A stretch of 64,000 nucleotides of DNA. Source: an uncultured Actinomycetota bacterium. Its GTDB lineage: Bacteria > Actinomycetota > UBA4738 > HRBIN12. The DNA lies in contig CAVPCM010000011.1 in assembly GCA_963702405.1 (NCBI GenBank), positions 19,764-83,763 of the forward strand. Reading direction: 5' to 3'. Numbering within the stretch: position 1 is the stretch's first letter; every line of letters starts with the position of its first letter. This document shows positions 5,017 to 62,426 of this stretch, in pieces. The position numbers and the translations under genes are program-made. A model generated the notes under the pieces. The model ran no database searches, was not told the DNA's origin, and worked only from the letters and a program-made list of their open reading frames with translations.

Positions 5017-7513
<2,497 letters not shown>

Positions 7514-7516
7514 CGC

Positions 7517-8032
7517 GTGCTCGAGCCCGTCCGGTCGTCCGTCCTCTTCCGAGGACGATGGGTCCAGGTGGACGAGGAGGAATGGCCCGACGCGGGAACC
7601 TGGGAGGTGTTCAAACCCAAGGACGCGGCGGCGGTCCTCCCGATCACACCGGACGGGGACGTCCTGTTGATCCGTCAGTTCCGCGCCGGTGCTCGGAGTC
7701 TGATCGAGGAGATACCGGCCGGGCTTCTCGATGTGGAGGGCGAGGACGCGCCCAGTTGCGCCACCCGCGAGCTGTTCGAAGAGACCGGGTTCCGCCACAC
7801 GTCGCTCGAGCCGCTCGTGGCGTTGCACCTGTCCCCGGGATCCTCGAGCGAGCTGGTGCATCTGTTCGTGGCTCGGACGGGGGGCGATCCCGAACGCGCG
7901 CCGGAAGAGGGCATCGAGGTGATCCGGCGGTCGTTCGACGGAGCGGTGGACGACGCCCGCGCCGGTCGGATCGACGACGCGAAGACCGTGCTCGCGCTGC
8001 TCCTCGCCGACGCCCGGATGGCCGCGGGGTAG
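7517..8032 (+). CDS. NUDIX hydrolase (ADP-ribose pyrophosphatase-like, Rv1700 family)
   Basis: Nudix box G-x5-E-x7-REL.EETG (CATRELFEETG). Confidence 0.85.
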   Translation: MLEPVRSSVLFRGRWVQVDEEEWPDAGTWEVFKPKDAAAVLPITPDGDVLLIRQFRAGARSLIEEIPAGLLDVEGEDAPSCATRELFEETGFRHTSLEPLVALHLSPGSSSELVHLFVARTGGDPERAPEEGIEVIRRSFDGAVDDARAGRIDDAKTVLALLLADARMAAG

Positions 8033-8060
8033 GCTCTGACCGAGTCGGAAGGGGCAGGCG

Positions 8061-18510: not shown

Positions 18511-18518
18511 GGACGTCG

Positions 18519-21879: not shown

Positions 21880-21941
21880 GGTCCGGCGCGGTGCCGGGCG
21901 GGCCGTGGAGCCGCAACCCCGCACGGCTACACTGCAACGTA

Positions 21942-34699: not shown

Positions 34700-34989
34700 C
34701 CTCCACCCCCCAACTGGTGTCTGTGCTACTTCGTTGCCCTATGGACCCGGTCGACGCCCTACGGCGTACACCGTGGTCCTCTTGCCCAGAAAGGTAACCC
34801 CTCCATCCGGGGGACACATCGGGCGAACGGCCTCGCCGCTCCTGGCAGACGGAGTAGTCCGTTCGGAGGAGCGAGAGCGTGCAGGAAGCTCACTGTTGCG
34901 CGAGGCAGAAACATCGAGCACGTGCGGAAGGATCGGGGAGGAGCCAGATCGACCGGGCCCGACGACTGGTTCCCGGCTCTCGGGTTGCT

Positions 34990-37053: not shown

Positions 37054-37371
37054 CTTTCCTCCTGGTCCGTTTCGCGCCATGTCGGGGCACAGAACCCTCT
37101 GTCGGCCGGTCGACCCACACCCTACGGGGGGAGGGGGGACGGGGACATCGGCCGGAAGACGCGGACCATCAGCCCGATGCTTGGGCCAGATACCGGACGG
37201 AGCTTCGCATCCACCTGGGGCGGAAGCAAGAACGACGATCAGCCCCCGATGTGTCGGGTGGATCGCTCGGACGCCCATCGGCCGGGGGAGGGAGAGGCCA
37301 CAGGGGTCGTTCCCAGGGAAGTTACATAATGAGCGTTATCGGGGTAGCGGACGCGAGGGCCGCTCGACATC

Positions 37372-41791: not shown

Positions 41792-42504
41792 GGCGCCGCG
41801 ATGATAGAGGAGTCCCGCTCACCGAGCAGCACCACGGCCGCTTCTTCGCGATCCTCGAAGACCCTCGTCTTGTCCCGATGGAGCTCGAGGCCGATCGCCT
41901 CCCCGGCCGTGCGCATCGCGGCCATCGCGGCCCTGACCTCGTCGGCAGGCCCCCACAGGACGACGTCATCGACCCAACGGAGGTGCCGGGCGCCGGCGCT
42001 CCGGATCGCACGATCCAGGCGGGACAAGGCCGCGTTCGCGAGGACGGCGGATGGCTCCGGGCCCACGGGGAGCCCGCGCACGCCTGCCTCGTGGAACCGG
42101 CGGAGGAGGGCAACCGCCTGCGCGCTCTCCGGACCCAGCAGCACTCCGATCGTCTCGAGCGAGATCGAGGCGTAGCAGTCGCGCACGTCGGCGACCGCGA
42201 ACGTCGCCCCCGGAGCGTCGAGGATCGCCCGCCGGATGCTGCTGCGCCACGTGGCACGTGCCGCTCTCCATGGCGCGAGCGTCCATCCGGCATCGTCTCG
42301 CCTCGCGCGCACGGCCACCACTTCGGGCCCCAGGGAACGCTCGATCCGGCCCAGGAGCGGGCCGACCGACGCTCGGTACGCCGCGTCATCCGCGGGACCG
42401 AGCACGGTCAGCCAGCGGGTTCCGCCGCCGGGCTTGGAGATGGGGATCGATCGCGGGCAGGGGCTGTCATCCCTGCCCGTGGGCCGCGTGGGACGCCGCC
42501 GCAT
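41788..42504 (-). CDS. compact reverse transcriptase (RT motifs 1-7, no thumb/X domain), about 238 aa
   Basis: Motif 1-2 IPISKPGGGTRWLTVLGPADDAAYRA. Motif 3 AVADVRDCYASI. Motif 4 GLPVGPEPSAVLANAAL. Motif 5 RWVDDVVLW. Motif 6 GLELHRDKTRVF. Motif 7 VVLLGE. GGAGGAG RBS 9 nt upstream of ATG 42504. The 116-aa extension in the ORF track is antisense to lrp and judged non-coding. Confidence 0.75.
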   Translation of the reverse strand: MRRRPTRPTGRDDSPCPRSIPISKPGGGTRWLTVLGPADDAAYRASVGPLLGRIERSLGPEVVAVRARRDDAGWTLAPWRAARATWRSSIRRAILDAPGATFAVADVRDCYASISLETIGVLLGPESAQAVALLRRFHEAGVRGLPVGPEPSAVLANAALSRLDRAIRSAGARHLRWVDDVVLWGPADEVRAAMAAMRTAGEAIGLELHRDKTRVFEDREEAAVVLLGERDSSIIAAP

Positions 42505-42545
42505 CGCGTTCGCTCCTCCGGGGGAGACCGGGAGGAGGAGACGCC
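42505..42545 (-). promoter_or_regulatory. hairpin in the RT 5' leader that pairs the Shine-Dalgarno (GGAGGAG) with an upstream CTCCTCC
   Basis: Minus-strand CTCCTCCTCCCGGTCTCCCCCGGAGGAG read directly. Confidence 0.3.
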
Positions 42546-42606
42546 GACCGTAGTACCGGGACCCGGGCGCGAGCAATCGGCCGTCGCGGGGATTCCTCGG
42601 TCCCCC

Positions 42607-43068
42607 GTGTGGGACCATGCCGCCGTGCTGGATGAGCGGGATCTCGCGATCCTCACGGCCCTGCAGGCGGATGGCCGCGCCACGTACGCGGACGTCGGCG
42701 CGACGGTGGGGCTCTCGGCGAGCGCCGTGCACGAGCGTGTCCGGAAGCTCGAGCAGCAAGGGGTGATCCGTGGATACAGGGCCGTCGTGGATCCCGAGGC
42801 CGTCGGTCTGTACGTGACGGCGCTGATCGCCGCGATCCCGCTCGATCCGCATCAGCCCGACGACCTGCCGGCGAGGGTGCGGGAATTCCCGGAGGTCGAG
42901 GACTGCTACTCGGTCGCCGGTGAGGCGAACTACGTGCTGAAGGTCCGGACGAAGACGACGGGTGACCTGGAGGATCTGATCCGGCGACTCCGCGAGAAGG
43001 CGGCGGTGACCACGAACACCACGATCGCGCTCTCGATCCCGTTCGAGGGCCGCGCTCTGCGTCCGTGA
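42607..43068 (+). CDS. Lrp/AsnC family transcriptional regulator
   Basis: LDERDLAILTALQADGRATYADVGATVGLSASAVHERVRKLEQQGVIRGY plus a C-terminal RAM domain. Start is GTG 42607 or GTG 42625. Confidence 0.8.
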   Translation: MWDHAAVLDERDLAILTALQADGRATYADVGATVGLSASAVHERVRKLEQQGVIRGYRAVVDPEAVGLYVTALIAAIPLDPHQPDDLPARVREFPEVEDCYSVAGEANYVLKVRTKTTGDLEDLIRRLREKAAVTTNTTIALSIPFEGRALRP

Positions 43069-46553: not shown

Positions 46554-47467
46554 AGCTTGAAGAGGATCGACCGAGGCATGATCTGGAACGTGACCGGCGT
46601 CGTGCCGAGTGCGACACCGTCGGCGATGACGGGCAGCGGCCGCTCGGATCGGATCTCGAAGCGGATCTTCGCCTTCAGCTCCTGGATGTGCGGGTCGGGG
46701 ACGTGATCGCCGTGGCGGAAGAGCCGCGGGAGCTGCGTGTAGGCGCCCGAACGGGGGCCGGTGAACACGAGGGCGTCCAGGACGCCGTCCCCCGGGAACG
46801 ATCGAGGCGACAAACGGAGGCCGCCTCCGGTGAACTGCGCGTTCGCGACGACGACGTTCCACGCCCGGCCCTCCCAGGTCCGCCGGTCGTGCTCCACCGT
46901 CACCCGGGACGCCTTCGTTTTGAGGTAGCCGCACCAGAAGCCGTAGAACCGCCGCGAGCCGCCCAGCCAGGCCGGAGCCTTCGCCGCACACGCGACCTGT
47001 TGCGCACCCATCCCCACCTGCGCGAGGTTGTGCCCGTACCTCGTGTGGCGCTCCCCCGCGGCGCCGGTGGCCGTGATCTTCATGAGGTCGAGACCGTAGG
47101 TGTTGTCCCCCAGGAGGTGGGTGGCCGCCGACTCCGTGTCGCCCGGGATGCCGAAGCTCCGAACGAGATCGCACCCGCTCCCGGCTCCGATAACGCCGAG
47201 CACTGGCTCCTCCCCGATCGTGCGGCCCTCTCGGAACATCCCGTTCACGACGTCCTGGATGGTCGCGTCGTTCCCCATCGCGACGAGGAACCGGTACCCG
47301 TCGTCGAGGGCCGAGGCCGCGAGCGCGGAGGGATCCGACCCGTTCGCCACCAAGGTCCGGTGCTCCAAGCCACGCTCGTCGAGCGCGCGCTCCAGCAACG
47401 GGAGCTGGGAGAGGATGCCCGCCCGGGGGTCGACGATCACGGCGATCGTGCCGAAGGGGCTGGTCAT
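46550..47467 (-). CDS. diacylglycerol-kinase-catalytic-domain lipid kinase (variant GNDAT motif)
   Basis: DAGK_cat-like fold with GNDAT in place of GGDGT. Confidence 0.65.
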   Translation of the reverse strand: MTSPFGTIAVIVDPRAGILSQLPLLERALDERGLEHRTLVANGSDPSALAASALDDGYRFLVAMGNDATIQDVVNGMFREGRTIGEEPVLGVIGAGSGCDLVRSFGIPGDTESAATHLLGDNTYGLDLMKITATGAAGERHTRYGHNLAQVGMGAQQVACAAKAPAWLGGSRRFYGFWCGYLKTKASRVTVEHDRRTWEGRAWNVVVANAQFTGGGLRLSPRSFPGDGVLDALVFTGPRSGAYTQLPRLFRHGDHVPDPHIQELKAKIRFEIRSERPLPVIADGVALGTTPVTFQIMPRSILFKL

Positions 47468-47494
47468 GACCGAGGTCCCATGGGCGAAGCGTAG

Positions 47495-50151
47495 CTATAC
47501 ACCCGTGTAGGCGACGACGCCGCGGAGGATCGCGGCGCGCCCGGCCCGGACCTGCGCCGCCGTGCCGGGCGGAGCGACGTCCTCGATCTGCCGGAGCAGA
47601 TCGACCAGCTGCTTGCAGTTCCGGATGAAGTCCCCGGGAGCCATGTCCGTCTCCGCGAGGATGTCGTCGAGGGCCTCGCCCTCGGCCCACTGGTGGATCG
47701 GCCTGGCGAATCCCGCTTCGAGCTCGCGGCAGAGCTGCACCTGGTGCTCGTCCTCGGTGCGCCGGACCTTCCGCCACAAACGCTGAAGTCGCTCGTAGCG
47801 CTCCTTCGTCTCCGCCGTCGGCATCTCGCCCGAGAGGGGATCCGCTCCCGTCCCTCGTAGATCACCGCCGACAACAGGGCGACGACCTCGGAGGGCCCGA
47901 GGTCGTCCAGGAGGCCCGACGCGAGCGCCTCCCCCACCAGCAGGTCGCCCTCGCCGTAGATGCGGGTGAGCGTCTGCCCCTTCACGGTGAGCTCCCAGTC
48001 GTCCACGTAGCCCAGCGCCCGCAGGACCGACAGGACCCGGTCGAACTGTCGCGCGAGCGTCTCGGTGCGGACCCTGATCCGCCGCTCGACGCCGCCGAGC
48101 CGTCGCTGGAGCTCCGTCGCCCGGCTCGCCCAGCGCTCGTGCTTCCCGCGCTCAGGGCATCGCCGACACGGATGTGCCGCGGCGAGCTCCTCCAGCCGGG
48201 CAGCCTCGCGTTCGACCTTGGGGTTCGTCTGGGCGCGCCGCGTGCCTCCCCCGGTCTTCACGTCGAGCGCGACGAGGCGAGCCGCGACGTCCCGGCGGAA
48301 CCGCGGGTTGCGCACGCTCCCGGACCGGGGCAACGGGATCTTCGTCAGGACCTGCGGCGGGTCCTCGAAATCCCGCGGCGTCAACCGGAAGAACTGGCGG
48401 TCCTGGGCGAGGACGGTCGGCTTCCCGTCTCGCGAGGACACGACCACCGCGATGCCGCGTCGCCGGGCGCGCGGCACCCACACGACATCGCCCGGACGGA
48501 GCCCCGCGACGCCGGAGCGGACGTCGTCACGACGTCCCTGATCACGTGCACGCCGATCCTCGTCGCGCAGCCGTCGCGCCTTCTCCAGATAGCCCCAGTA
48601 CTCCTCGAAATCACCGAGGTGGCAGGTCATGTTCTTCCGGTAGCCCTCGAGCGTCGCGAGGTCCTGCTGCCGGGATCGCTCGAGCACCACCACGCCCCGG
48701 TCGGCGAGGAACTGCGCGAACGAGGAGTTCAACAGATGATGCGCCTGCTCGGGCGTGTAGTTGCGGACGAGGTTCACCGCCATGTTGTAGGAGGGTCGGA
48801 ACGACGACGCGAGGTCGTAGGTCCGCGTGGCCGCGAGCCCCGCGACCCGCTCGAACGGCACCTGGCGCTGGTAGACGACGACCGCGTGTCCGAGCGCGTC
48901 GATCCCGCGCCGGCCCGCGCGTCCCGTGAGCTGCGTGTACTCACCGGGCGTGACCAGCTCGTGGCGTTCGCCCTGGAACTTCCAGAGGTCCTCGATCACG
49001 ACGCTCTTGGCGGGCATGTTGATCCCCAGCGAGAGGGTCTCCGTCGCGAAGACCACCTTCACGAGCCCTTCCTGGAACAACTCCTCGACCGTCTCCTTGA
49101 ACATGGGGAGCATGCCGGCGTGGTGGGCGGCGACGCCGGTGGTCAGGGACTCGAGGAACTCCGCGAATCCGAGGCTCGTGAGGTCGTCCTCGTCCACCCA
49201 CGCGGCCCGGGTCTCCGCCCGATCCCGGATCGTGGCGGCCTCCTCCCGGGTCGTGAGGCGGACCCCCGCGTCCCGGAGCCAGCCCACGCTCTTCTCGCAG
49301 CCGGACCGGCTGAACACGAAGTAGATCGCCGGCAGCATCCCTTCTTGCGCGAGCACGTCGACCACCTCCTCGCGGCGGGGGACGTAGACGCGGCGGTAGC
49401 CCTCCCGGGGTCGGGAGATCCGCTGGTGCTGCGGCAGCCCCGACCCGCGCCGGTAGTACGTCTTCGTCTTCAGCTCGTGCTGGTCCAGGGAGACGACGTA
49501 GGGGTTCGGCATCAGGATCCCGTCCTGCTCGATGTGCATCGGATGCAGCCGGGGCCCCACGAGGTAGTGATGCTCGAGCGGTACCGGGCGGCGCTCCTCG
49601 ATCACGACGCGGGTGTCGCCACGGAGGGTCGTGATCCACTCGCCGAACTCCTCCGCGTTCGAGATCGTCGCGGAGAGCGCGATCACGCTCACGGAGGGCG
49701 GGAGGTGGATCAGGACCTCCTCCCACACGGCGCCACGGTAGGGGTCCTGCAGGTAGTGCACCTCGTCCATGACGACGGCGTGCAAGCCCGAGAGTGTGGA
49801 CGATCGCTCGTACAACATGTTGCGGAGGACCTCGGTGGTCATGACGACGACGGCCGCCTCCGGATTGATCGCGTTGTCGCCCGTGAGGAGACCGACCGTC
49901 CCCGCGCCGTGTTTCGCGACGAGATCGCCGAACTTCTGGTTCGACAGGGCCTTCAGCGGGGTCGTGTAGAAGGCCTTGGCGCCGCGGTCGAGCGCGCGCT
50001 CGATGGCGAACTCCGCGACGACGGTCTTCCCCGAGCCGGTCGGCGCGGCCACGAGGGTCGACATCCCGCGATGGACGGCATCGATCGCCTCGTGTTGGAA
50101 CGCGTCGAGCGCGAAGGGGAACTGCCGCGCGAAGTCCTCGGGCGTGGTCAC
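47495..50151 (-). CDS. helY: Ski2-like DEAD/DEAH-box helicase HelY, interrupted by an apparent 1-nt frameshift near 47835-47838
   Basis: AAPTGSGKT, DEVH and helicase-C motifs in ORF 47464..50151. The genuine C-terminal DSHCT-like segment (ETKERYERLQRLW...IHQWAEGEALDDIL) is in a different frame (ORF 47495..47824). The junction maps to a C4/G4 run. Confidence 0.8.
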
Positions 50152-50217
50152 GGTGGGGCCAGTCTACGGGCGGTCCTCCGTTGCCCCGGTTGGGATGCCC
50201 GCGGGGCGTGGGGCTAG

Positions 50218-50945
50218 AGACCGAGCCCCGTCAGCACGCCGGCGAGCGCGGTGTCGAAGGCCTCCGGCGCCTCGAGGTTGGACAGGTGGCCGGCGCCCTC
50301 GATCCGGAGCAGTTCCGCCCCGCCGACGCCGTCGGCGATGCCCGCCGTGACGTCGGGGGGATCAGGCGATCCTCCGAACCGGTGATCACCAGCGTGGGCA
50401 CGTCGATCGTCGCGAGGTCCTGCACCGAGTCAGGCCGCTCGGCCATCCCGAGCGAGGCCGCCGCGATCGCGTTCGGGGTCTGCTCCGCCGATCCATCCCC
50501 GCACGCGCTCGCGGAGCTCCGCCGGAGCATCCTCCCGGAGCAGGGGCGGGGGTTCGTCGACCAGGAACCCGTGGCCCTCGGTCCGCAGCCGCTCGGCCAG
50601 CTCCCGGCGCTTCGCGGCGGCCTCGGGCTGGTCGGCCTCGGCCTTCGTGTTCGCCAGCACCAGAGCGGCGACACGCGGCCGCGCAGCCCTCCACAGCTCG
50701 AACGCCACGTACCCACCCATCGACAGGCCGCACACGACCGCGGTGTCGACGCCGGCCTCGTCGAGCGCTCCGAGGCACCGGTCCGCCGCGGCGGCCATCG
50801 TGAGGACATCCGGGCCCTCGGTGGAACCGAAGCCGGGAAGGTGCGGGGCGACCAGCGGGAGCCGGGCGCCCAACGAGCCGAGCTGCGGTTCCCACAGCCG
50901 CGCGTCGAGAGGGAAGGCATGGATCAGCAGGAGGCCCGTCGTCAT
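50218..50945 (-). pseudogene. alpha/beta hydrolase (proline-iminopeptidase-like) with two apparent frameshifts
   Basis: N-terminus LLLIHAFPLDARLWEPQL..GLSMGGYVA (nucleophile elbow) in one frame, middle in a second frame, C-terminus VPTLVITGSEDRLIPP / DVTAGIADGVGGAELLRIEGAGHLSNLEAPEAF in a third. Shifts lie at G6 (50355-50360) and C4 (50497-50500) runs. Confidence 0.6.
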
Positions 50946-50949
50946 GGGG

Positions 50950-51864
50950 TCACCGTACGGCCTTGGCGTCCGGACCGACCACCACGGCGAGCGCGCCGGG
51001 CCGGATCTCGAAGATCGCGGGCAACGGTCCGATCGGCTCCCCGTCCGCGTAGACCAGCACACGCCGGTTCGCTTCCACCTCCACCTTCGTCCCGGTGCGC
51101 ATCGTGACCTTGGGGTGCGTGGTGTGCGACCCGATGAAGACGCGGGGGAACGCTCGGAGGAACGCGGCCTTGGAGAGCGCCTGCACGATGCAGACGTCCA
51201 GGAGTCCGTCGTTCATGAGGGCGTCCGGAAGGACCCGCATGCCCCCACCGGTCCAGCGGCCGCTCCCGACCTCGACGAGCATCGCGTCACTCTCGATCCG
51301 CTCATCGTCGACCGTCACGACGAACGCGGCCGGGGAGAACCTGGAGAGCGTCTTGACCAGGGCGGCGACGTACGTGCCCGTCGCACCCAGCTTGATCGTC
51401 ATCCCGTTCGCGGTCTCGTTCACCTCGGAGTCGAACCCGGCGCCGGCGATGTTGAGGAAGCTCCTCGTGACGACGCCCGCGGTGACCTCGATCACGTCGA
51501 GGTCCGCGGTCTTCGGGTCGGCGAGCAGTTCGATCGCGGTCCGGAGCTTCCCCGCGCCGATCGCCTTCGCGAAGTCGTCGCCGGTGCCGGCCGGCAGGGC
51601 CGCCAGGGCCGTTCCCGTCCCGAGGATCCCGTTCGCGGCGAGCGAGGCCGTCCCATCGCCTCCGAGCGCCGCCACGATCCTCGCCCCGTCCTCCGAGGCG
51701 GCCCGAGCCAGACGCTCCACGTCGGGGCCCGACTCGGAGACGCGGATCTCGTGCGCCACGCCGAGCCGGCGCAGTGCGGTCGTGACCGAGCCGATCAGCT
51801 TCCCCGCTTTCCCGTGGCCGGCCGCGGGGTTCGCGACCACCACCAGGTCCGGTGCGCCGGCCAT
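50950..51864 (-). CDS. diacylglycerol-kinase-catalytic-domain lipid kinase (canonical GGDGT)
   Basis: LVVVANPAAGHGKAG...AALGGDGTAS. Confidence 0.75.
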   Translation of the reverse strand: MAGAPDLVVVANPAAGHGKAGKLIGSVTTALRRLGVAHEIRVSESGPDVERLARAASEDGARIVAALGGDGTASLAANGILGTGTALAALPAGTGDDFAKAIGAGKLRTAIELLADPKTADLDVIEVTAGVVTRSFLNIAGAGFDSEVNETANGMTIKLGATGTYVAALVKTLSRFSPAAFVVTVDDERIESDAMLVEVGSGRWTGGGMRVLPDALMNDGLLDVCIVQALSKAAFLRAFPRVFIGSHTTHPKVTMRTGTKVEVEANRRVLVYADGEPIGPLPAIFEIRPGALAVVVGPDAKAVR

Positions 51865-51870
51865 GCGCTG

Positions 51871-52596
51871 CTACGAGCCCGGCAGACCCGGGAGGGCCGG
51901 CTGCTGCGGGTTGATCCCGGCGCCGCTGAGCGCCTCGACGTGGTGGGTCTGGAAGCGGGCCATCGCGGCGTCCGACTCGGCGAGCAACGACTGCGCGCGG
52001 TCGAGCACGCCGGCCCGGTCGGCGACGTCGAGACGCGCGGCGGTCACGCCGAGGAGTGCGGCTTCGCGGATCAACGTGAGCGACGTGAGCAGCTCGTCCC
52101 TCGCCGAGAGGAATCGGAGCACCTGACCCTTGTCGAAGCCCTTGCCCGTGAGCGAGCTCGAGAGGTCGTAGGACTCGATCGCACCCGAAACCTCCTTCGC
52201 GCCCGCGGCCGCGCCCTGCAGGGCTCCGACGGCATCCGCAGGGGTGCGCTCCTCCAGCTCGGTGAGGGTGGTCCGCACCTCCGGGAGGACGACGGGAGGC
52301 GAGCCTTCCTGCACCGTCCCGATCGTTCCCACCTCGGTCTCGATCAAGGACTTCCAGGAGGCGCCGGCGCGCCGGCGGAGGAGGTCTTGCTCCTCCGCCC
52401 GCGTGGTCCGGTCCTGGGCGCGGAGCCCGTTCGTGAGCCAGACGCCGCCCCAGAAGACCAGCAGGCCGGCCAGGAACGCGGCCAGAGCCTGGACCCCTCG
52501 CCGCCGCAGGAACGGCACCGGGACCGGGACAGGGCCGCGCCGAGGCGCGCGCACCGGTTGCCTCGTCTTCGTCCGTCCCTTGCCCTTGATCGCCAT
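51871..52596 (-). CDS. hypothetical membrane-anchored protein
   Basis: Single N-terminal TM helix (ALAAFLAGLLVFWGGVWL). No recognisable domain. Confidence 0.45.
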   Translation of the reverse strand: MAIKGKGRTKTRQPVRAPRRGPVPVPVPFLRRRGVQALAAFLAGLLVFWGGVWLTNGLRAQDRTTRAEEQDLLRRRAGASWKSLIETEVGTIGTVQEGSPPVVLPEVRTTLTELEERTPADAVGALQGAAAGAKEVSGAIESYDLSSSLTGKGFDKGQVLRFLSARDELLTSLTLIREAALLGVTAARLDVADRAGVLDRAQSLLAESDAAMARFQTHHVEALSGAGINPQQPALPGLPGS

Positions 52597-52606
52597 CGTC
52601 TCGTCC

Positions 52607-53389
52607 TTATCGCTTCAGCAAACGGCTGACGATGATAGCGCCCTCGTAGAAGAGGTAGAGCGGGATCAACAGCGCGAGCATCGAGATCGGGTCGGGACTC
52701 GGCGTGATCACCGCGGCGAAGATCGCGAGGGCGAGGATGACCTGGCGCCGGTACTTGCGCATCGTCTCGCTGGTGAGGACCCCGGCCGCGGAGAGCGAGA
52801 TGAGCAGGACCGGGAACTCGAACCCGAGCCCGAACGCGAGGATCGTGAAGATCACGAAGCCGATGTACTTGTCGACGGTCAGCAACGGGCTGACGAAGTC
52901 GCCCCCCACGCCGAGGAGGAAGTACAGGGCCTTCGGGAGCGTCAGGAACGCGGCCAGGGCTCCGAGGAGGAACAGCACGACGGAGAGCGCCACGAACGGT
53001 ATCGCCCACTTGCGCTCCCGCGCCGTGAGGCCGGGGACGATGAAGGCCCAGAGCTGATACAAGATCACCGGCAAGGCCACCAGGAGCGCCAGGAATATGA
53101 CCACCTTCACGGTGATCAGGAAGCCGTCGATCGCCCCGAGGAAGATGAGCGAACATCCCTGTTGCTCGAACGGAGCCTTGTCGGGATTCTCTCGGAGGAA
53201 GTCGCAGTAGGGGCTCTTGATGAGCTCCATCACCGGGTTGTAGAGGAAGATTCCGACGATCGACCCCCCGATCAACGCCCACAGGACCACGATCAATCGA
53301 TGACGGAGCTCCCTGAGGTGGTCCATCAACGACATCGAGCCCTCGCGCTGCTCGGGGGTCTTCCGGCGCCACCTCGGGAGGGTCCTCAT
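52607..53389 (-). CDS. tatC: twin-arginine translocase subunit TatC
   Basis: Six-TM TatC pattern (LMDHLRELRHRL...). Start overlaps the tatA stop (ATGA). Alternative start at 53335. Confidence 0.88.
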   Translation of the reverse strand: MRTLPRWRRKTPEQREGSMSLMDHLRELRHRLIVVLWALIGGSIVGIFLYNPVMELIKSPYCDFLRENPDKAPFEQQGCSLIFLGAIDGFLITVKVVIFLALLVALPVILYQLWAFIVPGLTARERKWAIPFVALSVVLFLLGALAAFLTLPKALYFLLGVGGDFVSPLLTVDKYIGFVIFTILAFGLGFEFPVLLISLSAAGVLTSETMRKYRRQVILALAIFAAVITPSPDPISMLALLIPLYLFYEGAIIVSRLLKR

Positions 53390-53880
53390 GGGTCCGGTGT
53401 CGACTCGGGGTCGGGTGGTGTGTCCTCGGAGGTGTGGGTGTCACCGGAGGCGTCGCCGGACGCGGGGGTGGTCCCGCCGTCCTCCACGAGCCGGTCGGCG
53501 GGTGGTCCCGCCGCTTCGGTTGGCTCGGCCGGAGTCGCGGCCGGGGTCGAGGAACGACCGACAGGCTTCGAGCGTGGGGCGTGGGGCGTACGGAGCGCGG
53601 CGGTCTCGTCCCGGATCGTCCGTTCGGCCCGGCGGACGGCGCCTTTCACGTCGGTCGCCCGCTTGATGCCGCCGGTGGCCTGACGGAACTCATCCGCCGC
53701 TTGCCGCATGTCGTCGTCGACCCCCGACGACACCATGTCGCGGACCTCGTCTTGGACCTCCCGGAACTGGCGGAGCACGCGGCCGACCGAACGGGCGAGC
53801 TCGGGCAGGCGTTCCGGCCCCACCACGATCAGTGCTACGGCGAGGACGACGAGGAGCTCGAGGGGTCCTACGTTGAGCAT
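53386..53880 (-). CDS. tatA: twin-arginine translocase protein TatA/TatB with long acidic tail
   Basis: MLNVGPLELLVVLAVALIVVGPERLPELARSVGRVLRQFR. Confidence 0.8.
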   Translation of the reverse strand: MLNVGPLELLVVLAVALIVVGPERLPELARSVGRVLRQFREVQDEVRDMVSSGVDDDMRQAADEFRQATGGIKRATDVKGAVRRAERTIRDETAALRTPHAPRSKPVGRSSTPAATPAEPTEAAGPPADRLVEDGGTTPASGDASGDTHTSEDTPPDPESTPDP

Positions 53881-53908
53881 CGGTCTCGGGACGTGCCCGG
53901 CAGCGAGT

Positions 53909-54157
53909 CTATCGGGGACCCCTGCGGCGGGCGGACGCCCCGTGAGGGGACGCGCGCTCCGAGAGGCGGGATGCCGTGTCGGCGGCCCGCGCCGAGGCGG
54001 CGGCCACCTCATCGGCGATCGGCTGGAGCTCCTCCTGCATCCGCCCGGCGGTCCGCCCGAGCAGGATCACGTGGCGAACGAGGAACCCCAGCATCACGAG
54101 CAGGGCGACGGTGGTCACGAGACCGACCACGAGCCAGACGACGAGCCAGGCTTCCAC
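53909..54157 (-). CDS. putative small membrane protein
   Basis: GTG start. One TM helix. Coding-like GC3 usage. No RBS seen. Confidence 0.3.
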   Translation of the reverse strand: MEAWLVVWLVVGLVTTVALLVMLGFLVRHVILLGRTAGRMQEELQPIADEVAAASARAADTASRLSERASPHGASARRRGPR

Positions 54158-54211
54158 GTCAGGGATGCTACCGGGCGAACGCGGGAGGATGCGGTCCCGA
54201 CGAGGCGGGAA

Positions 54212-54589
54212 CTACGACTCTTCCGAGCCGGCCAGGAACTCCTTGAGGTAGTGCTCGTCCTCGAGGAGGAAGTGGAACTCGATCACGTCGTCGATCGAGA
54301 ACGCGGGACCGTCCATCGCGTGTTCGAGCGGCTCGACGGCCTCCATGGGCTCCTGATCGAAGAGGCTCTCGCTCATCTCCGCGCTCCCTCTCGGTTCGAG
54401 ATCCACGCCGGCGGACACGAGCAGGGCCACGATCTTGCGATCGGCCCGCTTCTCGACGGCGTCGTCACAGCGAGGGCACGTGAAGCGGTAGCTCCCCTCC
54501 CGGCCGCTGGAACGGACCGAGAGCGAGATCGCTTCGGGGCCCATGTCGACCTCTCCGCAGCGGGGGCATGTCGTCCGGATGGTGGTCAT
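54212..54589 (-). CDS. small zinc-ribbon protein (CPRC...CPRC), acidic C-terminus
   Basis: MTTIRTTCPRCGEV...RFTCPRCDD. Confidence 0.45.
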   Translation of the reverse strand: MTTIRTTCPRCGEVDMGPEAISLSVRSSGREGSYRFTCPRCDDAVEKRADRKIVALLVSAGVDLEPRGSAEMSESLFDQEPMEAVEPLEHAMDGPAFSIDDVIEFHFLLEDEHYLKEFLAGSEES

Positions 54590-54662
54590 CTCACGACAGC
54601 TATCGGCCCTCCGACGACGCGGCTTGAGGCTCGCGAGCGTTGTCGGGGCTAGACCCGTCTGA

Positions 54663-55643
54663 CTAGGTCTTGTGGCCGTAGCCCGCGAGGGTCTCGCGGG
54701 CGAGCCGCCGCACCTCGTCCCGGAGCTCGGCGGGCTCGACGACCTCGGCATCGTCCCCGACGCGGACCAGCAGCCGCGCGACCCAGCCGAGCTGACGTGC
54801 CGGAAGCGTCGCCTCGACTCCCCCGTCGTCCCGTTCCTCGAGCTCGGTCGTGGCGTAGTACTCCGCGATCCAGCGCGCCGCCGGTCGCAGTCGCAGGCGC
54901 ACGGATACGTCCTCCCCGGTCGGCGAATACAGGTCTCGTCCCGCTCCCCGCAAGCCGCGCGGCACGAACGTCTCGCCGGTCGGCGCTGCGCTCCGGACCC
55001 GATCCGCGCGGAAGAGACGCTCGGCGTCCGCGTCCACGTCCCAGGCGGCCACGTACCAATGCCCCATCCCCGAGAAGACCTCCTCGGGATCGATCTCGCG
55101 ATGGCTCCACTCCCCCGTCGACGCCGCGAAGTAGTCGATCGACAGTCGTTCGTGTTCGCGCGCGGCCGCTCGCAGGAGCTCCAGGTGCTCCGGCGCTCGT
55201 CCCCGTCGCGCGATCTCGATGCGTCCCTCCGCCTCCCGCAGCGCGTCCGCGCCCAGGGAGCGCTGCAGCTTCTCCAACGCCTTCGCGAGGGCAGGGGCGT
55301 CGGGCATCCCCGGCAGGGCGAGGAGCTCCGTCCCGCGGAGGTAGACGGCGAGCGCCTCGATCCTCGTCAGCTGAAGGGGTCGAGAGAAGTGGTCGGCCAT
55401 CGAGATCCAGATGTGGCCGTCCTCGTCCACGTCGACGTCGATCAGGTCACCCGGGCCGTACGGAGGGAGGCCCGACATGAACAGGAGGTCGAGATCGCGC
55501 CGCAGCTGGCCGGGCGCCACGCCGAACGCCGTCGCGACGTCGTCCAGCGCGGAGCCGGGGTGCTGCACGAGGTACGGCACGATCGCGAGCATCCTCCCGA
55601 GCCGGTCCGACGTCTTGGGAACGCTCCGTTTGCGTTCAGCCAA
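54663..55643 (-). CDS. pafC: proteasome accessory factor PafC (HTH-WYL)
   Basis: HTH N-terminus and WYL-type middle domain. Position after pafB. Confidence 0.8.
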   Translation of the reverse strand: MAERKRSVPKTSDRLGRMLAIVPYLVQHPGSALDDVATAFGVAPGQLRRDLDLLFMSGLPPYGPGDLIDVDVDEDGHIWISMADHFSRPLQLTRIEALAVYLRGTELLALPGMPDAPALAKALEKLQRSLGADALREAEGRIEIARRGRAPEHLELLRAAAREHERLSIDYFAASTGEWSHREIDPEEVFSGMGHWYVAAWDVDADAERLFRADRVRSAAPTGETFVPRGLRGAGRDLYSPTGEDVSVRLRLRPAARWIAEYYATTELEERDDGGVEATLPARQLGWVARLLVRVGDDAEVVEPAELRDEVRRLARETLAGYGHKT

Positions 55644-56598
55644 GGAGCGCCTCCAGCCGGGCGATGACGGTGTCCCGCAGCGAGGCCGGGGATCGGACGA
55701 CGGCGTCGGGGCCGTACTCCAGCAGCATCGCGGCGAACGCCTCTTCGTCGGCCATCGGGATCTCCATCACGACCCGGCCGTCCCCGTCGACACCGACGTC
55801 CGTGGCCCCAGGGAACTGGGACGCCGCGAACCAGGCGCGGTCCGGCGAGAAGAGGATCACCGCTCGATCGTCCCCCGACGCGACCCACGGACCGGCATCC
55901 ACGTGGTCCGCGGCTCGGAAGTCCGTGGGCGGCGCGGATCCGTCGCCGGCGTCGGTCACCTCTCCCACGATCCGGGAGAGTCGGAAGGCGCGGACGTCGT
56001 CCCGCTCCCGGTCGTGGCCGACCAGGTACCAATGGCCCGCGCGGAACACCATCGCCCAGGCGTCGACGTCGCGGTCGCCCGTCCTCCCCTGCGACGTGCG
56101 GTACGTGAAGGAGATCCGGCGGAGCGCCTGGGTCGCCTCGGCCACCGCGTGGACCAGGTTGCTCCGCGCGTCGGACCCGGAGGCGAGCGGTCCCCCGCCC
56201 AGGCCGGCCAGCACGCCTCCGTCGGCCCCGTACAGGAGCTTGCGGGCTCCGCTCTCCGCTGCCTCGTCCTGGCCCCCGCTCTGCGCGGCCACGAGCAACG
56301 CGACCAGCTCACCCGGCTCGAACTCGATCTCGGGGAGGTAGTACTTCTCCTTCGGGATCACGTAGCCCTGCTCCGTCCCCCAGACGTCGACGTCCACGAG
56401 CTCGAGGGGCACGCCGTACTCGCGGAGCACGTCCTTGTCGCGCTCGAACATCCGCTTCGCGCTGTCCGGGTTGGCCTGTCCGTACGGCTCCAGGACCTGC
56501 CGGATCTGCTCGAACGTGAGGGGCCGCGGGGTCTCGAGGAGGAGGCCGACGAGGTTCAGCAGGCGCTCGAGTGGCTCCGCGCGGTCGCCCTCCCCCAT
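55636..56598 (-). CDS. pafB: proteasome accessory factor PafB (HTH-WYL)
   Basis: LERLLNLVGLLLETPRPLTFEQI HTH and WYL domain. Start chosen at MGEGDRAEP. Overlaps pafC by 8 nt. Confidence 0.8.
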   Translation of the reverse strand: MGEGDRAEPLERLLNLVGLLLETPRPLTFEQIRQVLEPYGQANPDSAKRMFERDKDVLREYGVPLELVDVDVWGTEQGYVIPKEKYYLPEIEFEPGELVALLVAAQSGGQDEAAESGARKLLYGADGGVLAGLGGGPLASGSDARSNLVHAVAEATQALRRISFTYRTSQGRTGDRDVDAWAMVFRAGHWYLVGHDRERDDVRAFRLSRIVGEVTDAGDGSAPPTDFRAADHVDAGPWVASGDDRAVILFSPDRAWFAASQFPGATDVGVDGDGRVVMEIPMADEEAFAAMLLEYGPDAVVRSPASLRDTVIARLEALLG

Positions 56599-56644
56599 CG
56601 TTGCGGCATCATATCGACGCCATGCTCTCCGACCGGAACGACCC

Positions 56645-57739
56645 GTGATCCACATCCGCCGAGGGGTCGTCCTCGACGTCACGGCGACCCGGCAAGGAGC
56701 CCAGGAGCTCCGGGTCGAGATCGGAGGCGAGGTGGCGCCCGCGGTGGCGTACCCCGCGATGAGCGGCGACGTGGTGCCGGGGGACGCCGTGATCCTCAAC
56801 ACGACGGCGGTGGATCTCGGGCTGGGGACGGGCGGCGTGCATCTGGTCATCGCGGTCGAAGGGCGGGAGGCCGCCGCGGAGACGCCGCCCGGCCAGGTGA
56901 TGAAGGCCAGGTACACGCCACTCCAGACGGCGGTCGCGAGCGTCGAGGAGTCGCACTCGACGCTCCTGGAGGCGTCGCAGGGTCTCGCCCAGACGCCGGT
57001 GGTCTGTGCGCCGCTGCACTCGATGATCGCGCCGATCGCGGCAGGCGCGAAGCGCGCGTCGGACGCACGGGTCGTCTACCTGATGACGGATGGCGCGGCC
57101 CTCCCCGGCGGGTTCTCCCGGCTCGTGGACGAGCTCCGCGCCGTCGGTCTGCTCGATGGCTGGATCACGTGCGGGCAGGCCTTCGGGGGCGAGCTCGAGG
57201 CGGTCACGGTGTGGTCCGGGTTGCTCGCGGCGAAGGAGCTGCTCGAGGCCGAGGTGATCGTGGTCGCCGACGGTCCGGGGAACCTGGGAACCGATACGAC
57301 CTGGGGTGTGAGCGCGCTCGCGAGCGGCCACGCGCTGATGGCCGCCGCGACCTTGGGCGGGCGGCCGATCCCCGCGCTCCGCGTGAGCTTCGCCGACGAA
57401 CGCGAGCGCCACCGGGCCGTCTCCCATCATTCGCTGACGATCCTGGCCGACGTCTGCAAGGTCGACGTCAACGTGCCGGTGCCCGTCCTGGAGGACGAGG
57501 CGCAACGGGCCGCGATCCGGGGGTCGCTCCGCTCGCGGAAGCTGGAGGAGACCCATCAGCTCGTCGAGGTCGATGGACAGCCGGCGCTGGAGGAGCTCCG
57601 CGCCCGCGACCTCGATGTGCGCACGATGGGACGCGGGATCGACGACGATCCCGCGTTCTTCCTCGCGGCGGGGGCGGCCGGTGTCCTCGCCGGCCGGCTG
57701 GCCGCCGAGAACCGCCGATGGCATCGGCCGGTCGACTGA
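56645..57739 (+). CDS. conserved hypothetical protein (DUF3866-like)
   Basis: About 364 aa. GTG start. No catalytic motif recognised. Opposite strand, inserted between pafA and pafBC. Confidence 0.5.
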   Translation: MIHIRRGVVLDVTATRQGAQELRVEIGGEVAPAVAYPAMSGDVVPGDAVILNTTAVDLGLGTGGVHLVIAVEGREAAAETPPGQVMKARYTPLQTAVASVEESHSTLLEASQGLAQTPVVCAPLHSMIAPIAAGAKRASDARVVYLMTDGAALPGGFSRLVDELRAVGLLDGWITCGQAFGGELEAVTVWSGLLAAKELLEAEVIVVADGPGNLGTDTTWGVSALASGHALMAAATLGGRPIPALRVSFADERERHRAVSHHSLTILADVCKVDVNVPVPVLEDEAQRAAIRGSLRSRKLEETHQLVEVDGQPALEELRARDLDVRTMGRGIDDDPAFFLAAGAAGVLAGRLAAENRRWHRPVD

Positions 57740-57770
57740 TCCGCCGCCGTCCGCTCCCGAGCGGCGTCCC

Positions 57771-59129
57771 TCACATGTGCGCGATCAGCTGCTCCACGCG
57801 TTCGTCGACCGACTTGAACGGATCCTTGCAGAGCACCGTCCGCTGCGCCTGATCGTTCAGCTTCAGGTGCACCCAGTCGACGGTGTAGTCGCGACGCTTC
57901 GCCTTGGCCTGCCGGATGAAGTCACCTCGCAGCTTCGCCCTCGTCGTCTGTGGTGGCTCGCGCATCGCCTTCGAGATATCGCTCTCCGCCGCGACGCGAT
58001 CCACCTTGCCCGCCTTCTCCAGGAGGTAGTACAGGCCTCTGCCCCGGTTCACGTCGTGATACGTGAGGTCGAGCAGGGCCACCCTCGGCGAGGCGAGGGA
58101 GAGGTCGTGCTTCTCCATGTAGCGCTCGATCACCATCCGCTTGGTGACCCAGTCGACCTTGCGTACCAACCGTTCCGGGGCGCCCTCCGCCAGCGCCTCG
58201 AGAGCCTCGCCCCACTCGTAGAGGAGCTTCTTCGATGCGTCGTCGGTTCCCCGCCGCTCGAGGAAACGCGAGGTCTTCTCGAAGTACTCCTGCTGCATCT
58301 CGATCGCGGACAACTCCCTGCCGTTCGCGAGCTTCACCTTCCGCGTGCCGGTGGTGTCGTGGCTGATCTCCCGGATCGCGCGGATCGGGTTCTCGAGGGT
58401 GAGATCCCGCATCACCGTGTTGCCCTCGACCATCCTGAGGACGAGGTCGGTGATGCCGACCTTGAGGTAGCTGGTCCATTCGCTCATGTTCGAATCACCG
58501 ACGATCACGTGGAGACGGCGGAACCGCTCGGCGTCCGCGTGCGGCTCGTCGCGCGTGTTGATGATCGGCCTCGACCGGGTCGTCGCCGAGGAGACGCCCT
58601 CCCAGATGTGTTCCGCCCTCTGGGAGATGCAGTACTGAGCACCCCTCGGCCCATGCAGCACTTTCCCTGCGCCACACCAGATCTGGCGGGTCACGAAGTA
58701 CGGGATCAGGACATCGGCCATCCGAGCGAACTCCCCGTGCCGGGCCACCAGGTAGTTCTCGTGGCAACCGTAGGAGTTGCCCGCCGAGTCGGTGTTGTTC
58801 TTGAAGAGGTAGACCTGGCCGGAGATGCCCTCCTCGTGGAGCCGGAGCTCGGCGGCGCCGAGGAGCGCCTCGAGGATCCGCTCCCCCGCCTTGTCGTGGG
58901 CCACGAGCTCCTCGACGTCGTCGCATTCGGGCGTCGCGTACTCCGGATGCGACCCGACATCGAGGTACAGCCGCGCGCCGTTCTCGAGGAACACGTTCGA
59001 CGAGCGGCCCCAGTGCACCACCCGGCGGAAGAGATAGCGCGCCACCTCATCCGGCGAGAGCCGGCGCTGCCCGCGGAACGTGCAGGTCACGCCGTACTCG
59101 TTCTCGAGGCCGAAGATCCTGCGCTCCAT
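57771..59129 (-). CDS. pafA: Pup--protein ligase PafA
   Basis: [10 protein letters not shown]...[16 protein letters not shown]...[19 protein letters not shown]. Confidence 0.92.
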
Positions 59130-59138
59130 GGAACGAGT

Positions 59139-59897
59139 CTAGGCCAGCCCGTGATCCCGCAGTGAAGATCCGAGGTGCGTCCGGCTTCGGCGAGGCCGAA
59201 GGGCCCTGCTCAGCCGGCGAGGAAGCCGGCGATCTCGTCGTCCGTCGAGCCTGCGGAACTTGCGACGTCGGCTCTGACTGCGCTCGAGCACGCCCGATTC
59301 GATGTGGTCGTGCTCGATCGTGCGCTGGTCGGGAGCGCCCAACACCTGCACGGCGGCCTTCACCGCCGTGGCGAGGTCCCATCCGGCGTTGTACCGCTCC
59401 TTCAGCTCCTCGGTGAGGTCGTCCGCGTGACCCCCGATCGCGACGAACCCGTGCTCGTCGGTCACGCTCCCGTCGAACAGGACGTGATAGATCGACGTGC
59501 CGTCGACCTCGCCGTTCACCTCACCCACGAGGATCTCCACCTCGTAGGGCTTCATCTGTTGCGTGAAGATCGTCGACAGCGCCTGCGAGTACGCGTTCGC
59601 GAGGTCCCGCGCCTTCACGTCCTCCCGACCGTAGGAGTACCCGCGGAGGTCCGCCAGCCGGATGCCGGCGATCCGCAGGTCCTCGAACTCGCTGTACTTC
59701 CCGACACCCGCGAACGCGATCCGATCGTAGATCTCGCTGATCTTGTGCAGGGTGGCGCTCGGGTTCTCGGCGATGAACAAGAGGCCGTCGGCGAACTCGA
59801 GGCCGATCACGGAGCGCCCCCGCGCGATCCCCTTGTGGGCGTACTCCGACCGATCCTTCATCAGCTGATCGGGCGAGACGTAGGGCATGAACGACAT
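59139..59897 (-). CDS. prcA: 20S proteasome alpha subunit
   Basis: MSFMPYVSPDQLMKDRSEYA...GVGKYSEFE. Confidence 0.9.
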   Translation of the reverse strand: MSFMPYVSPDQLMKDRSEYAHKGIARGRSVIGLEFADGLLFIAENPSATLHKISEIYDRIAFAGVGKYSEFEDLRIAGIRLADLRGYSYGREDVKARDLANAYSQALSTIFTQQMKPYEVEILVGEVNGEVDGTSIYHVLFDGSVTDEHGFVAIGGHADDLTEELKERYNAGWDLATAVKAAVQVLGAPDQRTIEHDHIESGVLERSQSRRRKFRRLDGRRDRRLPRRLSRALRPRRSRTHLGSSLRDHGLA

Positions 59898-60692
59898 CTA
59901 GGCCCTCGCCTCCAGCACGGCTCGGACGGCGTTCGCGACGTCCTCGTCGGTGGACTCCGCCGCGCCCAGGGCCGTCACCGTGACGACCACCGGGAAGATG
60001 CCTCTCGCGAGGTCGGGGCCGCCCGTCGCCACATCGTCCTCGGCCGCATCGATCAGCGCCTCGGCCGCAACGCGGAGCGCCTCCTCGTGGGTCAGCCCGG
60101 GTCTCCACCGCTTCTTCAGGGAGTTCTTCGCGGGCTGCGCCCCCGAGCCGGTCGCCTGATAGTCCTCTTCCTCCCAGCGTCCCCCGGTGGCGTCGTAGTA
60201 GAAGAGCCGGCCCTCGCTCCTCGCGACGTCGTAGCCGCCGAAGAGCGGGACCACCACGAGCCCCTGCATCGCGAGCGGGAAGTTGGCGCGGATCATCTGC
60301 GCGAGCCGGTTCGCCTTGCCTTCCAGTGACAGGCGATCCCCGGTGAGCTTCTCGTAGTGCTCGAGCTCGAGCTGGAACAGCCGGACGGTCTCGACGGCCT
60401 GGCCGGCCGCACCGGCGATCGCGATCGCGGAGAAGTCGTCGGCGGCGAACACCTTCTTCATCTTCGCGTCCGCGATCGTGTAGCCGGCCGTCGCTCGACG
60501 GTCTCCGGCCATGACGATGCCGTCCGCGAACCGCAATCCCAGGACGGTCGTGCCCTGGGCGACCTCCAAGGGCCCGCTCATCTGGAGCGACGACGGGAGC
60601 GCCTCGGGATGCTGACGACGAAGGAGCTCGACGAAGCTGGGGTCGGCGCCGAACGAAGCTCCCGACAGCGGGAGCTCGACCCGATCGGTCAC
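59898..60692 (-). CDS. prcB: 20S proteasome beta subunit (with propeptide)
   Basis: Propeptide then catalytic TTVLGLRFADGIVMAGDRRAT. Confidence 0.9.
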   Translation of the reverse strand: MTDRVELPLSGASFGADPSFVELLRRQHPEALPSSLQMSGPLEVAQGTTVLGLRFADGIVMAGDRRATAGYTIADAKMKKVFAADDFSAIAIAGAAGQAVETVRLFQLELEHYEKLTGDRLSLEGKANRLAQMIRANFPLAMQGLVVVPLFGGYDVARSEGRLFYYDATGGRWEEEDYQATGSGAQPAKNSLKKRWRPGLTHEEALRVAAEALIDAAEDDVATGGPDLARGIFPVVVTVTALGAAESTDEDVANAVRAVLEARA

Positions 60693-60889
60693 TCGCCGCC
60701 CTTCTGCACGTAGGACTTCACGAATTCCTCGGCGTTCTCTTCGAGGACCGAATCGATCTCGTCGAGGATGTCGTCCATCTCCTCCTTGAGCTCGGCGGCC
60801 TTCGAGGTCGCGGAGACCTGGCCGGCGTCGGCGTCGCTCTCGTCGCCACCACCGCCCTTCTTGACCTGCTTGCGCTCTTGTTCAGGCAT
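60689..60889 (-). CDS. pup: prokaryotic ubiquitin-like protein Pup (C-terminal GGE)
   Basis: 64-aa acidic protein ending ...FVKSYVQKGGE. Overlaps the prcB start. Confidence 0.9.
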   Translation of the reverse strand: MPEQERKQVKKGGGGDESDADAGQVSATSKAAELKEEMDDILDEIDSVLEENAEEFVKSYVQKGGE

Positions 60890-60940
60890 GGTTCCTCCTC
60901 CGTGGCGATTGTAGCCGCCGCACCGCGAGACCCTCCCGAT

Positions 60941-62426
60941 CTACCCCTGGAGCGCCGCGACGAGGGAGGCGGCGTCATGGGAAGCCTCGAGCAAGGCGTC
61001 GACATGTGTCTTCGTTCCGCGCAAGGGCTCCCGCATCGGGACGCGCTGGAGCGCCTCCGCGCCGGTGTCGATGATGAGGGAGTCCCACGACGCGGCCGCG
61101 ATCGCATCCGGGTACTTGCCGATGCATCTCCCTCGGAAGTAGGCCCGCGTGTCCTCCGGAGGCTCCATCACGGCGCGTTCGACGTCCGCCTCGTCGACCA
61201 GGCGATCGACCTTGTCCGAGCGTTCGAGCCGGTAGTAGAGACCCTTCTCGCGGCGGACATCGTGGTACTGGAGATCGATCGCGTGCAGCTTCGGGTCGCC
61301 CCGGTCCAATCCGCCTCGTTCCCGATAGGCCTCGAGGAGACGGAACTTCGCGACCCAATCAAGCTCGCGATGGAGCGAGAGAGGCTCGCTCTCGAGCGAG
61401 GTCAGGATCCGCTTCCCAGCGCTCGAGGACCTCGCGCTGGTCCGGGGTGTCGTCCTCGCGCTCGACGTACTTCTTCGCGTGCTCGAAGTACTCCCACTGG
61501 AGCTGCACCGCGTTCAATCGCCTGCCGTCGGCGAGTGGGACCTCGACCGTGCATGTCAGATCCCGAGAGATCTCGTGCAACGCTCGTACGGGCCCTTCGA
61601 GAGAGAGGTCCGGCAGGAAGCGGTCCTCGATCATCTTGAGCACGATCGCCGTCGTGCCGACCTTGAGGAACTGGGCGACCTCGCACATGTTGGCGTCGCC
61701 GATGATCACGTGCAGGCGGCGATACTTCTCGGGGTCCGCGTGCGGTTCGTCGCGCGTGTTGATGATCGGCCGCTTCAGCGTGGTCTCCAGGCCCACCTCC
61801 GTCTCGAAGAAGTCGGCGCGCTGCGTGAGCTGGTAGATCGGTCGGCCCCGCTCGTCCCACGGAGCCTCGGAGCCCAGCTTCCCGGCCCCGCAGAACACCT
61901 GGCGGGACACGAAGAACGGCGTCAGGTCCCGCACGATGTCGGCGAACGCGGTCTGCCGATCGACGAGGTAGTTCTCGTGGGTCCCGTAGGAGTTGCCCTT
62001 GCCGTCCGAGTTGTTCTTGTAGATCAGCAGCGCCGGTGAGTCCGGCAACTGCGTGGCGACTTCGCCAAGCGATCGCTCGAGGATGCGCTCCCCCGCCTTG
62101 TCGTGGATCACCAGGTCGCGCGACGTGAGGCACTCCGGTGTGGAGTACTCCGGGTGCGCGTGATCGACGTAGTACCTGGCCCCGTTGGGGAGGATCACGT
62201 TCGCAAGCCCCAGGTCCTCGTCGGAGACCTCGCGTGACGGGATCGGTTCGAAGCCTCTCGCGTCGCGGAGCGGCGACTCCTGTTCGTAGTCCCAACGGAT
62301 CCGCCGGAGCGAGCCCGCGAACGTCGAGATCAGCAGGGACGACGCGAGCACGGGATTGAAGTCCGGCACACCGACCGCGGCGATGCCGTACTCCGTCTCG
62401 GTGCCCAGGACCTTCGCGATGGCCAC
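60941..62426 (-). CDS. dop: Pup deamidase/depupylase Dop, interrupted by an apparent 1-nt frameshift near 61405-61411
   Basis: N-terminal ORF 61359..62426 (LGTETEYGIAAV...GARYYVDHAHPEYSTPEC) and C-terminal ORF 60941..61309 are contiguous apart from one extra base around GCGGATCC. Confidence 0.8.

Follow-up and report, generated by a model that had tools for sequence, protein, structure and literature searches.

Five single-base frame breaks in and near the Pup-proteasome locus of an uncultured actinobacterial contig are very probably consensus errors of long-read metagenome assembly

We analyzed a stretch of 64,000 nucleotides from an uncultured Actinomycetota bacterium (UBA4738; HRBIN12; assembly GCA_963702405.1, contig CAVPCM010000011.1, positions 19,764 to 83,763), hereafter called the window, in which single-base insertions or deletions (indels) break the reading frames of genes in and near a Pup-proteasome locus. 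The G+C content of the window is about 70%. From 64 to 47.4 kb, in the order of the minus strand, it contains arc/mpa, which is cut off by the end of the window, dop, pup, prcB, prcA, pafA and a DUF3866 gene on the plus strand, followed by pafB/pafC-like WYL genes, tatA/B/C, the gene of a DAGK-like kinase, the gene of an alpha/beta-fold hydrolase and helY. The broken genes, all on the minus strand, are dop (depupylase/deamidase; 60941-62426), prcA (20S proteasome alpha subunit; 59210-59897), the hydrolase gene (50214-50945) and helY (a Ski2-like DEAD/DSHCT helicase; 47495-50151). The reading frames of PafA, PrcB and Arc are intact, and pup (60689-60889, minus strand) is also intact and encodes a protein with the C-terminus GGE. 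PupE with a GGE terminus is found in many non-mycobacterial actinobacteria, and a Pup ending in GGE requires no deamidation by Dop.

The assignment of these genes was supported by profile matches. PafA (57771-59129, minus strand) matched TIGR03686 with 722 bits, and an identical protein was present on seven other contigs. After the removal of one base, dop encodes a protein of 494 amino acids that matched TIGR03688 with 642 bits (cutoff 492); the PafA model gave this protein a score of 413, below the PafA cutoff, so that TIGR03688 is the better fit. The repaired PrcA has 228 amino acids and matched TIGR03691 with 310 bits, and the scores of Pup, PrcB, PrcA and Arc all exceeded their cutoffs. 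The uncorrected open reading frame (ORF) of helY (47464-50151) encodes 895 amino acids and matched the DEAD and Helicase_C domains, with DSHCT covered only at positions 3-55 of 172. This DSHCT figure describes the uncorrected product; restoring one base gives a protein of 885 amino acids, and an orthologue of the same length in one sister assembly (L014) has both the DSHCT and SH3_HelY domains. The hydrolase has 243 amino acids after the repair of two indels, and its matches to NCBIfam alpha/beta hydrolase families such as PcaD were all sub-threshold.

To compare the broken genes with those of close relatives, we used PafA as the anchor for fetching sister assemblies by an exact-protein look-up, which led to seven contigs; further look-ups with GcvP, the DAGK-like protein and alanine dehydrogenase brought in contigs that together span about 1-64 kb of it. 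The resulting set comprised fifteen loci (with labels within L001-L016) from eight ENA metagenome assemblies, one NCBI metagenome-assembled genome (MAG) and one JGI contig. The ENA assemblies (ERZ25039494 to ERZ25039591) have contigs of 83-370 kb that are named contig_N in the style of Flye. The identity of the sister contigs to the window was 97.4-99.5%, and none of them is the window itself; exact look-ups with CysS, TrpS/TyrS and the truncated Dop fragment of 355 amino acids gave no match. In the closest relative, contig_50075 of ERZ25039591, dop (494 amino acids), prcA (228), the hydrolase gene (243) and helY (885) are all intact.

The breaks were located by three-frame translation, and the positions of the indels were refined by alignment with the relatives. 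In dop, an extra base at 61409-61410, inside GCGGATCC, splits the gene into ORFs of 61359-62426 and 60941-61309, just as the initial annotation had described. The window reads GC[G]GATC at this site, L002 reads GC[C]GATC, L007 has GCCATC with a synonymous single nucleotide polymorphism (SNP) in an Ala codon, and the others have GCGATC; five of the six other assemblies covering the site have the in-frame length. The large genes other than helY, the hydrolase gene and dop had been thought to be intact, but prcA proved to be broken as well: at 59246-59247 it has one C too many, which gives CT[C][G]ACG on the minus strand and is the fifth coding indel of the window. This insertion replaces the last 11 residues of PrcA with an out-of-frame tail of 35 residues extending into the start region of pafA (252 amino acids vs 228). 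The synonymous alleles at this site are CTG (L001 and L005) and CTC (L003, L004, L006 and L007), and the window and L002 have CTCG, that is, both in tandem. Neither the dop nor the prcA site is broken in the JGI contig; the NCBI contig has an unbroken prcA site and ends before the dop site.

In the hydrolase gene, the translation passes from frame 0 to frame 1 and back to frame 0. At the first site, 50488-50489 (CC), the minus strand has an extra base, GATC[G]GCGG, which is absent from all of the five other assemblies, and no SNP is found there. At the second site, a G6 run at 50355-50360, one base is missing, and this deletion is private to the window. The site lies in a synonymous Pro codon with three alleles (CCT, CCG and CCC), and the C6 of the window corresponds to C7 in L001 and L004. 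Of the five sister ENA assemblies, only L002 has a split hydrolase gene; in the other four it was called intact, with 243 amino acids. In helY, one base is missing from a G4 run at 47836-47839, where the window has GATCCCC|TCTC and L001 and L005 have GATCCCTCTCTC; a different deletion is found in the same CT-rich spot of L003 and L004 (GATCCT-CTCTC). The initial annotation had correctly recognized the frame switch in helY and the lack of one base, although it placed the run at 47835-47838, and it had correctly assigned one of the two hydrolase breaks to the G6 run, whereas the other lies about 9 nt from the C4 run (50497-50500) to which it had been attributed. Comparison with closely related genomes, which had been proposed as a check, showed the in-frame length at every one of the five sites in at least two other assemblies.

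The five coding indels span 47836-61410, that is, 13.6 kb, and the clustering noticed initially thus extends to the additional site in prcA. When five points are placed uniformly on 64 kb, the range statistic gives a probability of about 0.008, so the clustering is real but modest. A scan for more frameshifts with a frame plot of G+C at third codon positions was too noisy to be used alone and was superseded by the direct comparison with the sister assemblies. This comparison revealed no further clear frame-breaking coding indel over about 1-64 kb relative to the intact relatives; over about 1-47.7 kb, the only other differences are intergenic indels at 21902, 22641, 23153, 34981 and 37349 and two differences in the gene of a DUF11/CLIPPER protein (34990-37278, minus strand). 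At the N-terminus of this protein, the length of a G run at 37133-37138 differs, and the sister assemblies are split between the lengths. An extra G at 37023 appears to be private to contig_50075 and forms a -1/+1 pair with the difference in this run, 115 nt away. The protein is one of two large surface-type proteins (924 and 762 amino acids) encoded in tandem at 31925-37278 on the minus strand, both with repeated DUF11/DUF7507 (CLIPPER) domains, and these tandem genes are the most indel-ridden and the most variably called across the sister assemblies.

Single-base repair restores proteins without internal stops that are almost identical to those of ERZ25039591 (Dop, 494/494; PrcA, 228/228; HelY, 884/885; hydrolase, 242/243). 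Over the four genes there are 32 nucleotide differences from contig_50075, 13 of them in prcA, and at most two amino-acid differences after repair, so nearly all of the nucleotide differences are synonymous in the original frame. Six of the differences are located 3' of the breaks, and none of these six alters an amino acid in the original frame, although this sample is small. No secondary lesions were found in the four repaired genes in comparison with contig_50075.

Private indels also abound in the sister assemblies themselves. Those of 1-2 nt (not multiples of three) occurred at 0.11-1.18 per kb in the seven ENA assemblies that were scored; there were none in the JGI contig and two in 8 kb of the NCBI contig. 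They split conserved genes such as der, aroA, gcvP, a penicillin-binding protein gene, tatC, arc, and the DUF3866 and WYL genes, with a different set in each assembly. Frameshifts in housekeeping genes at a rate of about one per kb are implausible for a natural population.

We also examined the sequence context of the indels. The sites in prcA and dop and the second site in the hydrolase gene coincide exactly with synonymous polymorphisms. A similar coupling was observed in the sister assemblies, where 92 private 1-nt insertions were counted and 33 of them lie directly beside a SNP among the other haplotypes (9% expected; binomial p=1.5e-12); the base added in 24 of these 33 matches one of the SNP alleles. 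The private single-base or same-base insertions number 97, and in 76 of them the added base differs from its neighbour, indicating that these 76 are not homopolymer errors. Runs of 3-6 bases contain some of the private deletions of the sister assemblies. In the window, a homopolymer context, which had been assumed for all of the breaks, accounts for the G6 site of the hydrolase gene and possibly for the helY site, so that only two of the five sites are true changes in homopolymer length. The remaining three (dop, prcA and the first hydrolase site) are insertions outside homopolymers, and two of them lie on strain SNPs. Altogether four of the five sites have an error-prone context: three coincide with synonymous SNPs, and that of helY is a C run in CT-rich sequence.

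Taken together, the comparison of the assembled sequences suggests that the five indels in helY, the hydrolase gene (two), prcA and dop are very probably consensus errors of a long-read metagenome assembly and not mutations. Assembly or sequencing error was already the favoured explanation in the initial annotation, and it is borne out by the intactness of each gene in at least one independent assembly, by the restoration of the proteins by one-base repair, and by the abundance of private indels in the sisters. The window would thus be a contig of a long-read metagenome assembly from an uncultured actinobacterium of 70% G+C, and at least three of the five indels would have arisen where reads of co-occurring strains disagree at a synonymous third-codon position. 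At two of these sites the consensus step may have written both alleles serially (CTC/CTG to CTCG in prcA; GCG/GCC to GCGG or GCCG in dop), and in the hydrolase gene it may have mis-sized the homopolymer of one allele, calling the C7 of the CCC allele as C6. The platform was probably Nanopore with Flye and Medaka, like that of the Microflora Danica (MFD) long-read project, and the region of 47.8-61.4 kb may have become locally worse because the source sample contained a mixture of strains or gave low coverage.

Real null alleles in the population would be a different explanation, that is, a strain without Dop, with an altered PrcA tail, a HelY truncated in DSHCT and a broken hydrolase, which could be tolerable with PupE; the loss of Dop would not block pupylation since Pup ends in GGE. 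Further support could be seen in recurrence, since L002 as well as the window is frameshifted at the sites in dop and prcA, and three assemblies are frameshifted at the helY site. However, in the surroundings of dop and prcA, 500 nt contain about 12 SNPs between the window and L002 (2.4% local divergence), and the window is not locally closest to L002 there. Moreover, the base inserted in dop is not the same (G in the window, C in L002), and in helY the window lacks a different base from L003 and L004. Identity by descent of the frameshifts found in L002, L003 and L004 was therefore ruled out by the local divergence and the different bases, and the apparently common frameshifts are best read as recurrent events on divergent backgrounds, not as one inherited allele; the helY site in particular appears to be an error hotspot and not an allele common to the assemblies. 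The preservation of the downstream frames (32 nucleotide differences vs at most two in amino acids), the breakage of other housekeeping genes in each of the sister long-read assemblies, at up to about one per kb, and the intact sites in the JGI (dop and prcA) and NCBI (prcA) contigs also argue against null alleles, which we regard as unlikely. For the case that the breaks are real, the initial annotation had raised an organism that lacks Dop and HelY but keeps Pup, PafA and the proteasome. Its statement that a GGE Pup does without deamidation by Dop is correct, although it has no bearing here since dop is most likely intact, and no evidence in support of a Dop- and HelY-null organism keeping PupE was found. 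There is only a slender chance that one or more of the recurrent frameshifts are true alleles segregating in this soil actinobacterial population, the likeliest candidate being that in dop or that in prcA, both of which recur in L002. If so, there would be natural Dop-null strains with PupE, PafA and the 20S proteasome, in which pupylation takes place without depupylation.

Errors of other kinds were also considered. Plain miscalls of homopolymer length or random read noise, independent of strain variation, would suit the G6 site of the hydrolase gene (C7 in two relatives), the C4 of helY and those private deletions of the sister assemblies that lie in runs of 3-6 bases. They have little probability as a general cause, because three of the five events in the window are insertions outside homopolymers, most of the sister insertions are unlike the neighbouring base and strongly enriched beside SNPs, and random noise predicts no recurrence at the same sites elsewhere. 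Systematic basecalling errors at a methylated GATC motif were suggested by the positions of the four originally noted sites, all 0-3 nt from GATC (GC[G]GATC in dop, GATC[G]G at the first hydrolase site, and GATCCC[-] at both the second hydrolase site and helY). GATC occurs 799 times in the window, approximately once per 80 nt, the prcA site is not next to it, and only 7.7% of 155 private indels in the sister assemblies are within 2 nt of GATC against a background of 9.8%; we thus rejected Dam-type methylation as the cause, took the adjacency as a coincidence owing to this lack of enrichment, and consider such errors very unlikely. The least probable explanation, with a negligible chance in our judgement, is programmed frameshifting or phase variation at slippery or homopolymeric tracts. 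The C6/C7 tract in the hydrolase gene does differ in length between assemblies, but it exists only in strains with the synonymous CCC allele, the others having CCT or CCG; no site is kept frameshifted in the relatives or related species, and no common slippery motif was found among the sites.

Several points weigh against our preferred interpretation, consensus errors coupled to strain polymorphism. It is drawn from assembled sequences and not from direct observation of errors in reads, and the platform and coverage of the source are likewise judged from the sister assemblies. The first hydrolase site (50488-50489) lies in neither a known SNP nor a homopolymer. An insertion is present at the dop site as well as at the prcA site not only in the window but also in L002, and this double recurrence fits error only if the sites are strong hotspots or if the same strain mixture was present in both samples. 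Finally, the clustering within 13.6 kb has no demonstrated cause. The haplotype along the window offers a partial clue: it mostly resembles that of ERZ25039591, becomes a fine-scale mosaic or resembles ERZ25039536 from 54 to 61 kb, and returns at about 61.1 kb. The change at 54000-61100 reflects either recombination in nature or the merging of two co-occurring strains into a chimeric consensus. This mosaic covers the prcA site and ends near the dop site, and thus fits a two-strain consensus there. As the cause of the clustering, the haplotype switch was accepted only in part, since the helY and hydrolase sites are located outside the mosaic region.

Outside the broken genes, an ORF of 354 amino acids with a reverse-transcriptase domain was found at 41788-42852 (minus strand), between the genes of an AsnC-type regulator and an amidohydrolase. 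Its top PADLOC matches were the defence-associated reverse transcriptases Drt8, UG33, UG36 and UG23 (E 1e-18 to 1e-16). The match to Pfam RVT_1 was barely above the gathering threshold, and the ORF covers only approximately positions 54-270 of the reverse-transcriptase profiles of about 490 positions. It is kept in the closest sister assembly (L014, 14964-15680).

To extend the comparison to related species, we collected 80 loci from GTDB species representatives and examined twelve of them. The nearest representatives have 83-90% identity in PafA and are mostly MFD long-read MAGs that likewise have contig_N names. Each of dop, prcA and helY (with 71-83% identity in amino acids) and the hydrolase gene (about 60%) forms a single full-length ORF in the relatives examined, and the order of the genes is the same. 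In L020 (MFD02159.bin.1.80) dop is split at residue 423 and the hydrolase gene at residue 70, and in L021 (MFD07691.bin.2.43) the match to dop ends at residue 455; these breaks lie around 6700-8200 and 18000-18800. They suggest that the same class of error reaches public reference MAGs. The MFD pipeline uses Flye and one round of Medaka, the polishing being meant to lower indel errors (PMC12313526). A full-text search gave no direct link between the ERZ250394xx-395xx accessions and the MFD project; the same contig_N naming in the nearest GTDB relatives, which are MFD MAGs, gives indirect support for an MFD origin of these assemblies.

Annotating the four genes as pseudogenes, or concluding that Dop was lost in an organism with PupE, would spread an artefact. 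As a minor point of method, many of the 1-nt insertions in this family of long-read metagenome assemblies arise exactly at strain SNPs, with both alleles entering the consensus. Comparing assemblies is thus enough, without reads, to mark a frameshift as a probable error when it coincides with a synonymous polymorphism.

Truncation by frameshifts is a recognized class of error in long-read metagenome assemblies and is commoner in soil data from Oxford Nanopore Technologies (PMC13087279). The indels in the window resemble the consensus indel errors detected by IDEEL-type tests (PMC13087279, PMC9262707) in that they are isolated 1-nt events truncating conserved genes, are private and absent from independent assemblies, and are accompanied by a high rate of indels in the sisters. 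They differ in that most events of the type found in the window are not changes in homopolymer length but insertions coupled to SNPs, and the writing out of both alleles has no explicit description in the cited literature on long-read assembly. In genuine pseudogenes, as in the decay of the Mycobacterium leprae type, frameshifted ORFs likewise occur in several neighbouring genes. In contrast to such decay, the window has neither secondary lesions nor relaxed selection 3' of the breaks, intact copies of the genes exist in genomes of 99% identity, and the flanking haplotype and the breaks are not inherited together. The canonical actinobacterial Pup-proteasome locus (arc/mpa-dop-pup-prcB-prcA-pafA) matches the window in gene order and in all of the families, and in the window it is followed by a divergent DUF3866 gene and then by pafB/pafC. 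Most likely, the Pup-proteasome locus, HelY and the hydrolase are ordinary and intact in this organism, and the biological significance of the breaks would be small; once the single-base errors in dop and prcA are removed, the locus shows no biological difference from the canonical one.

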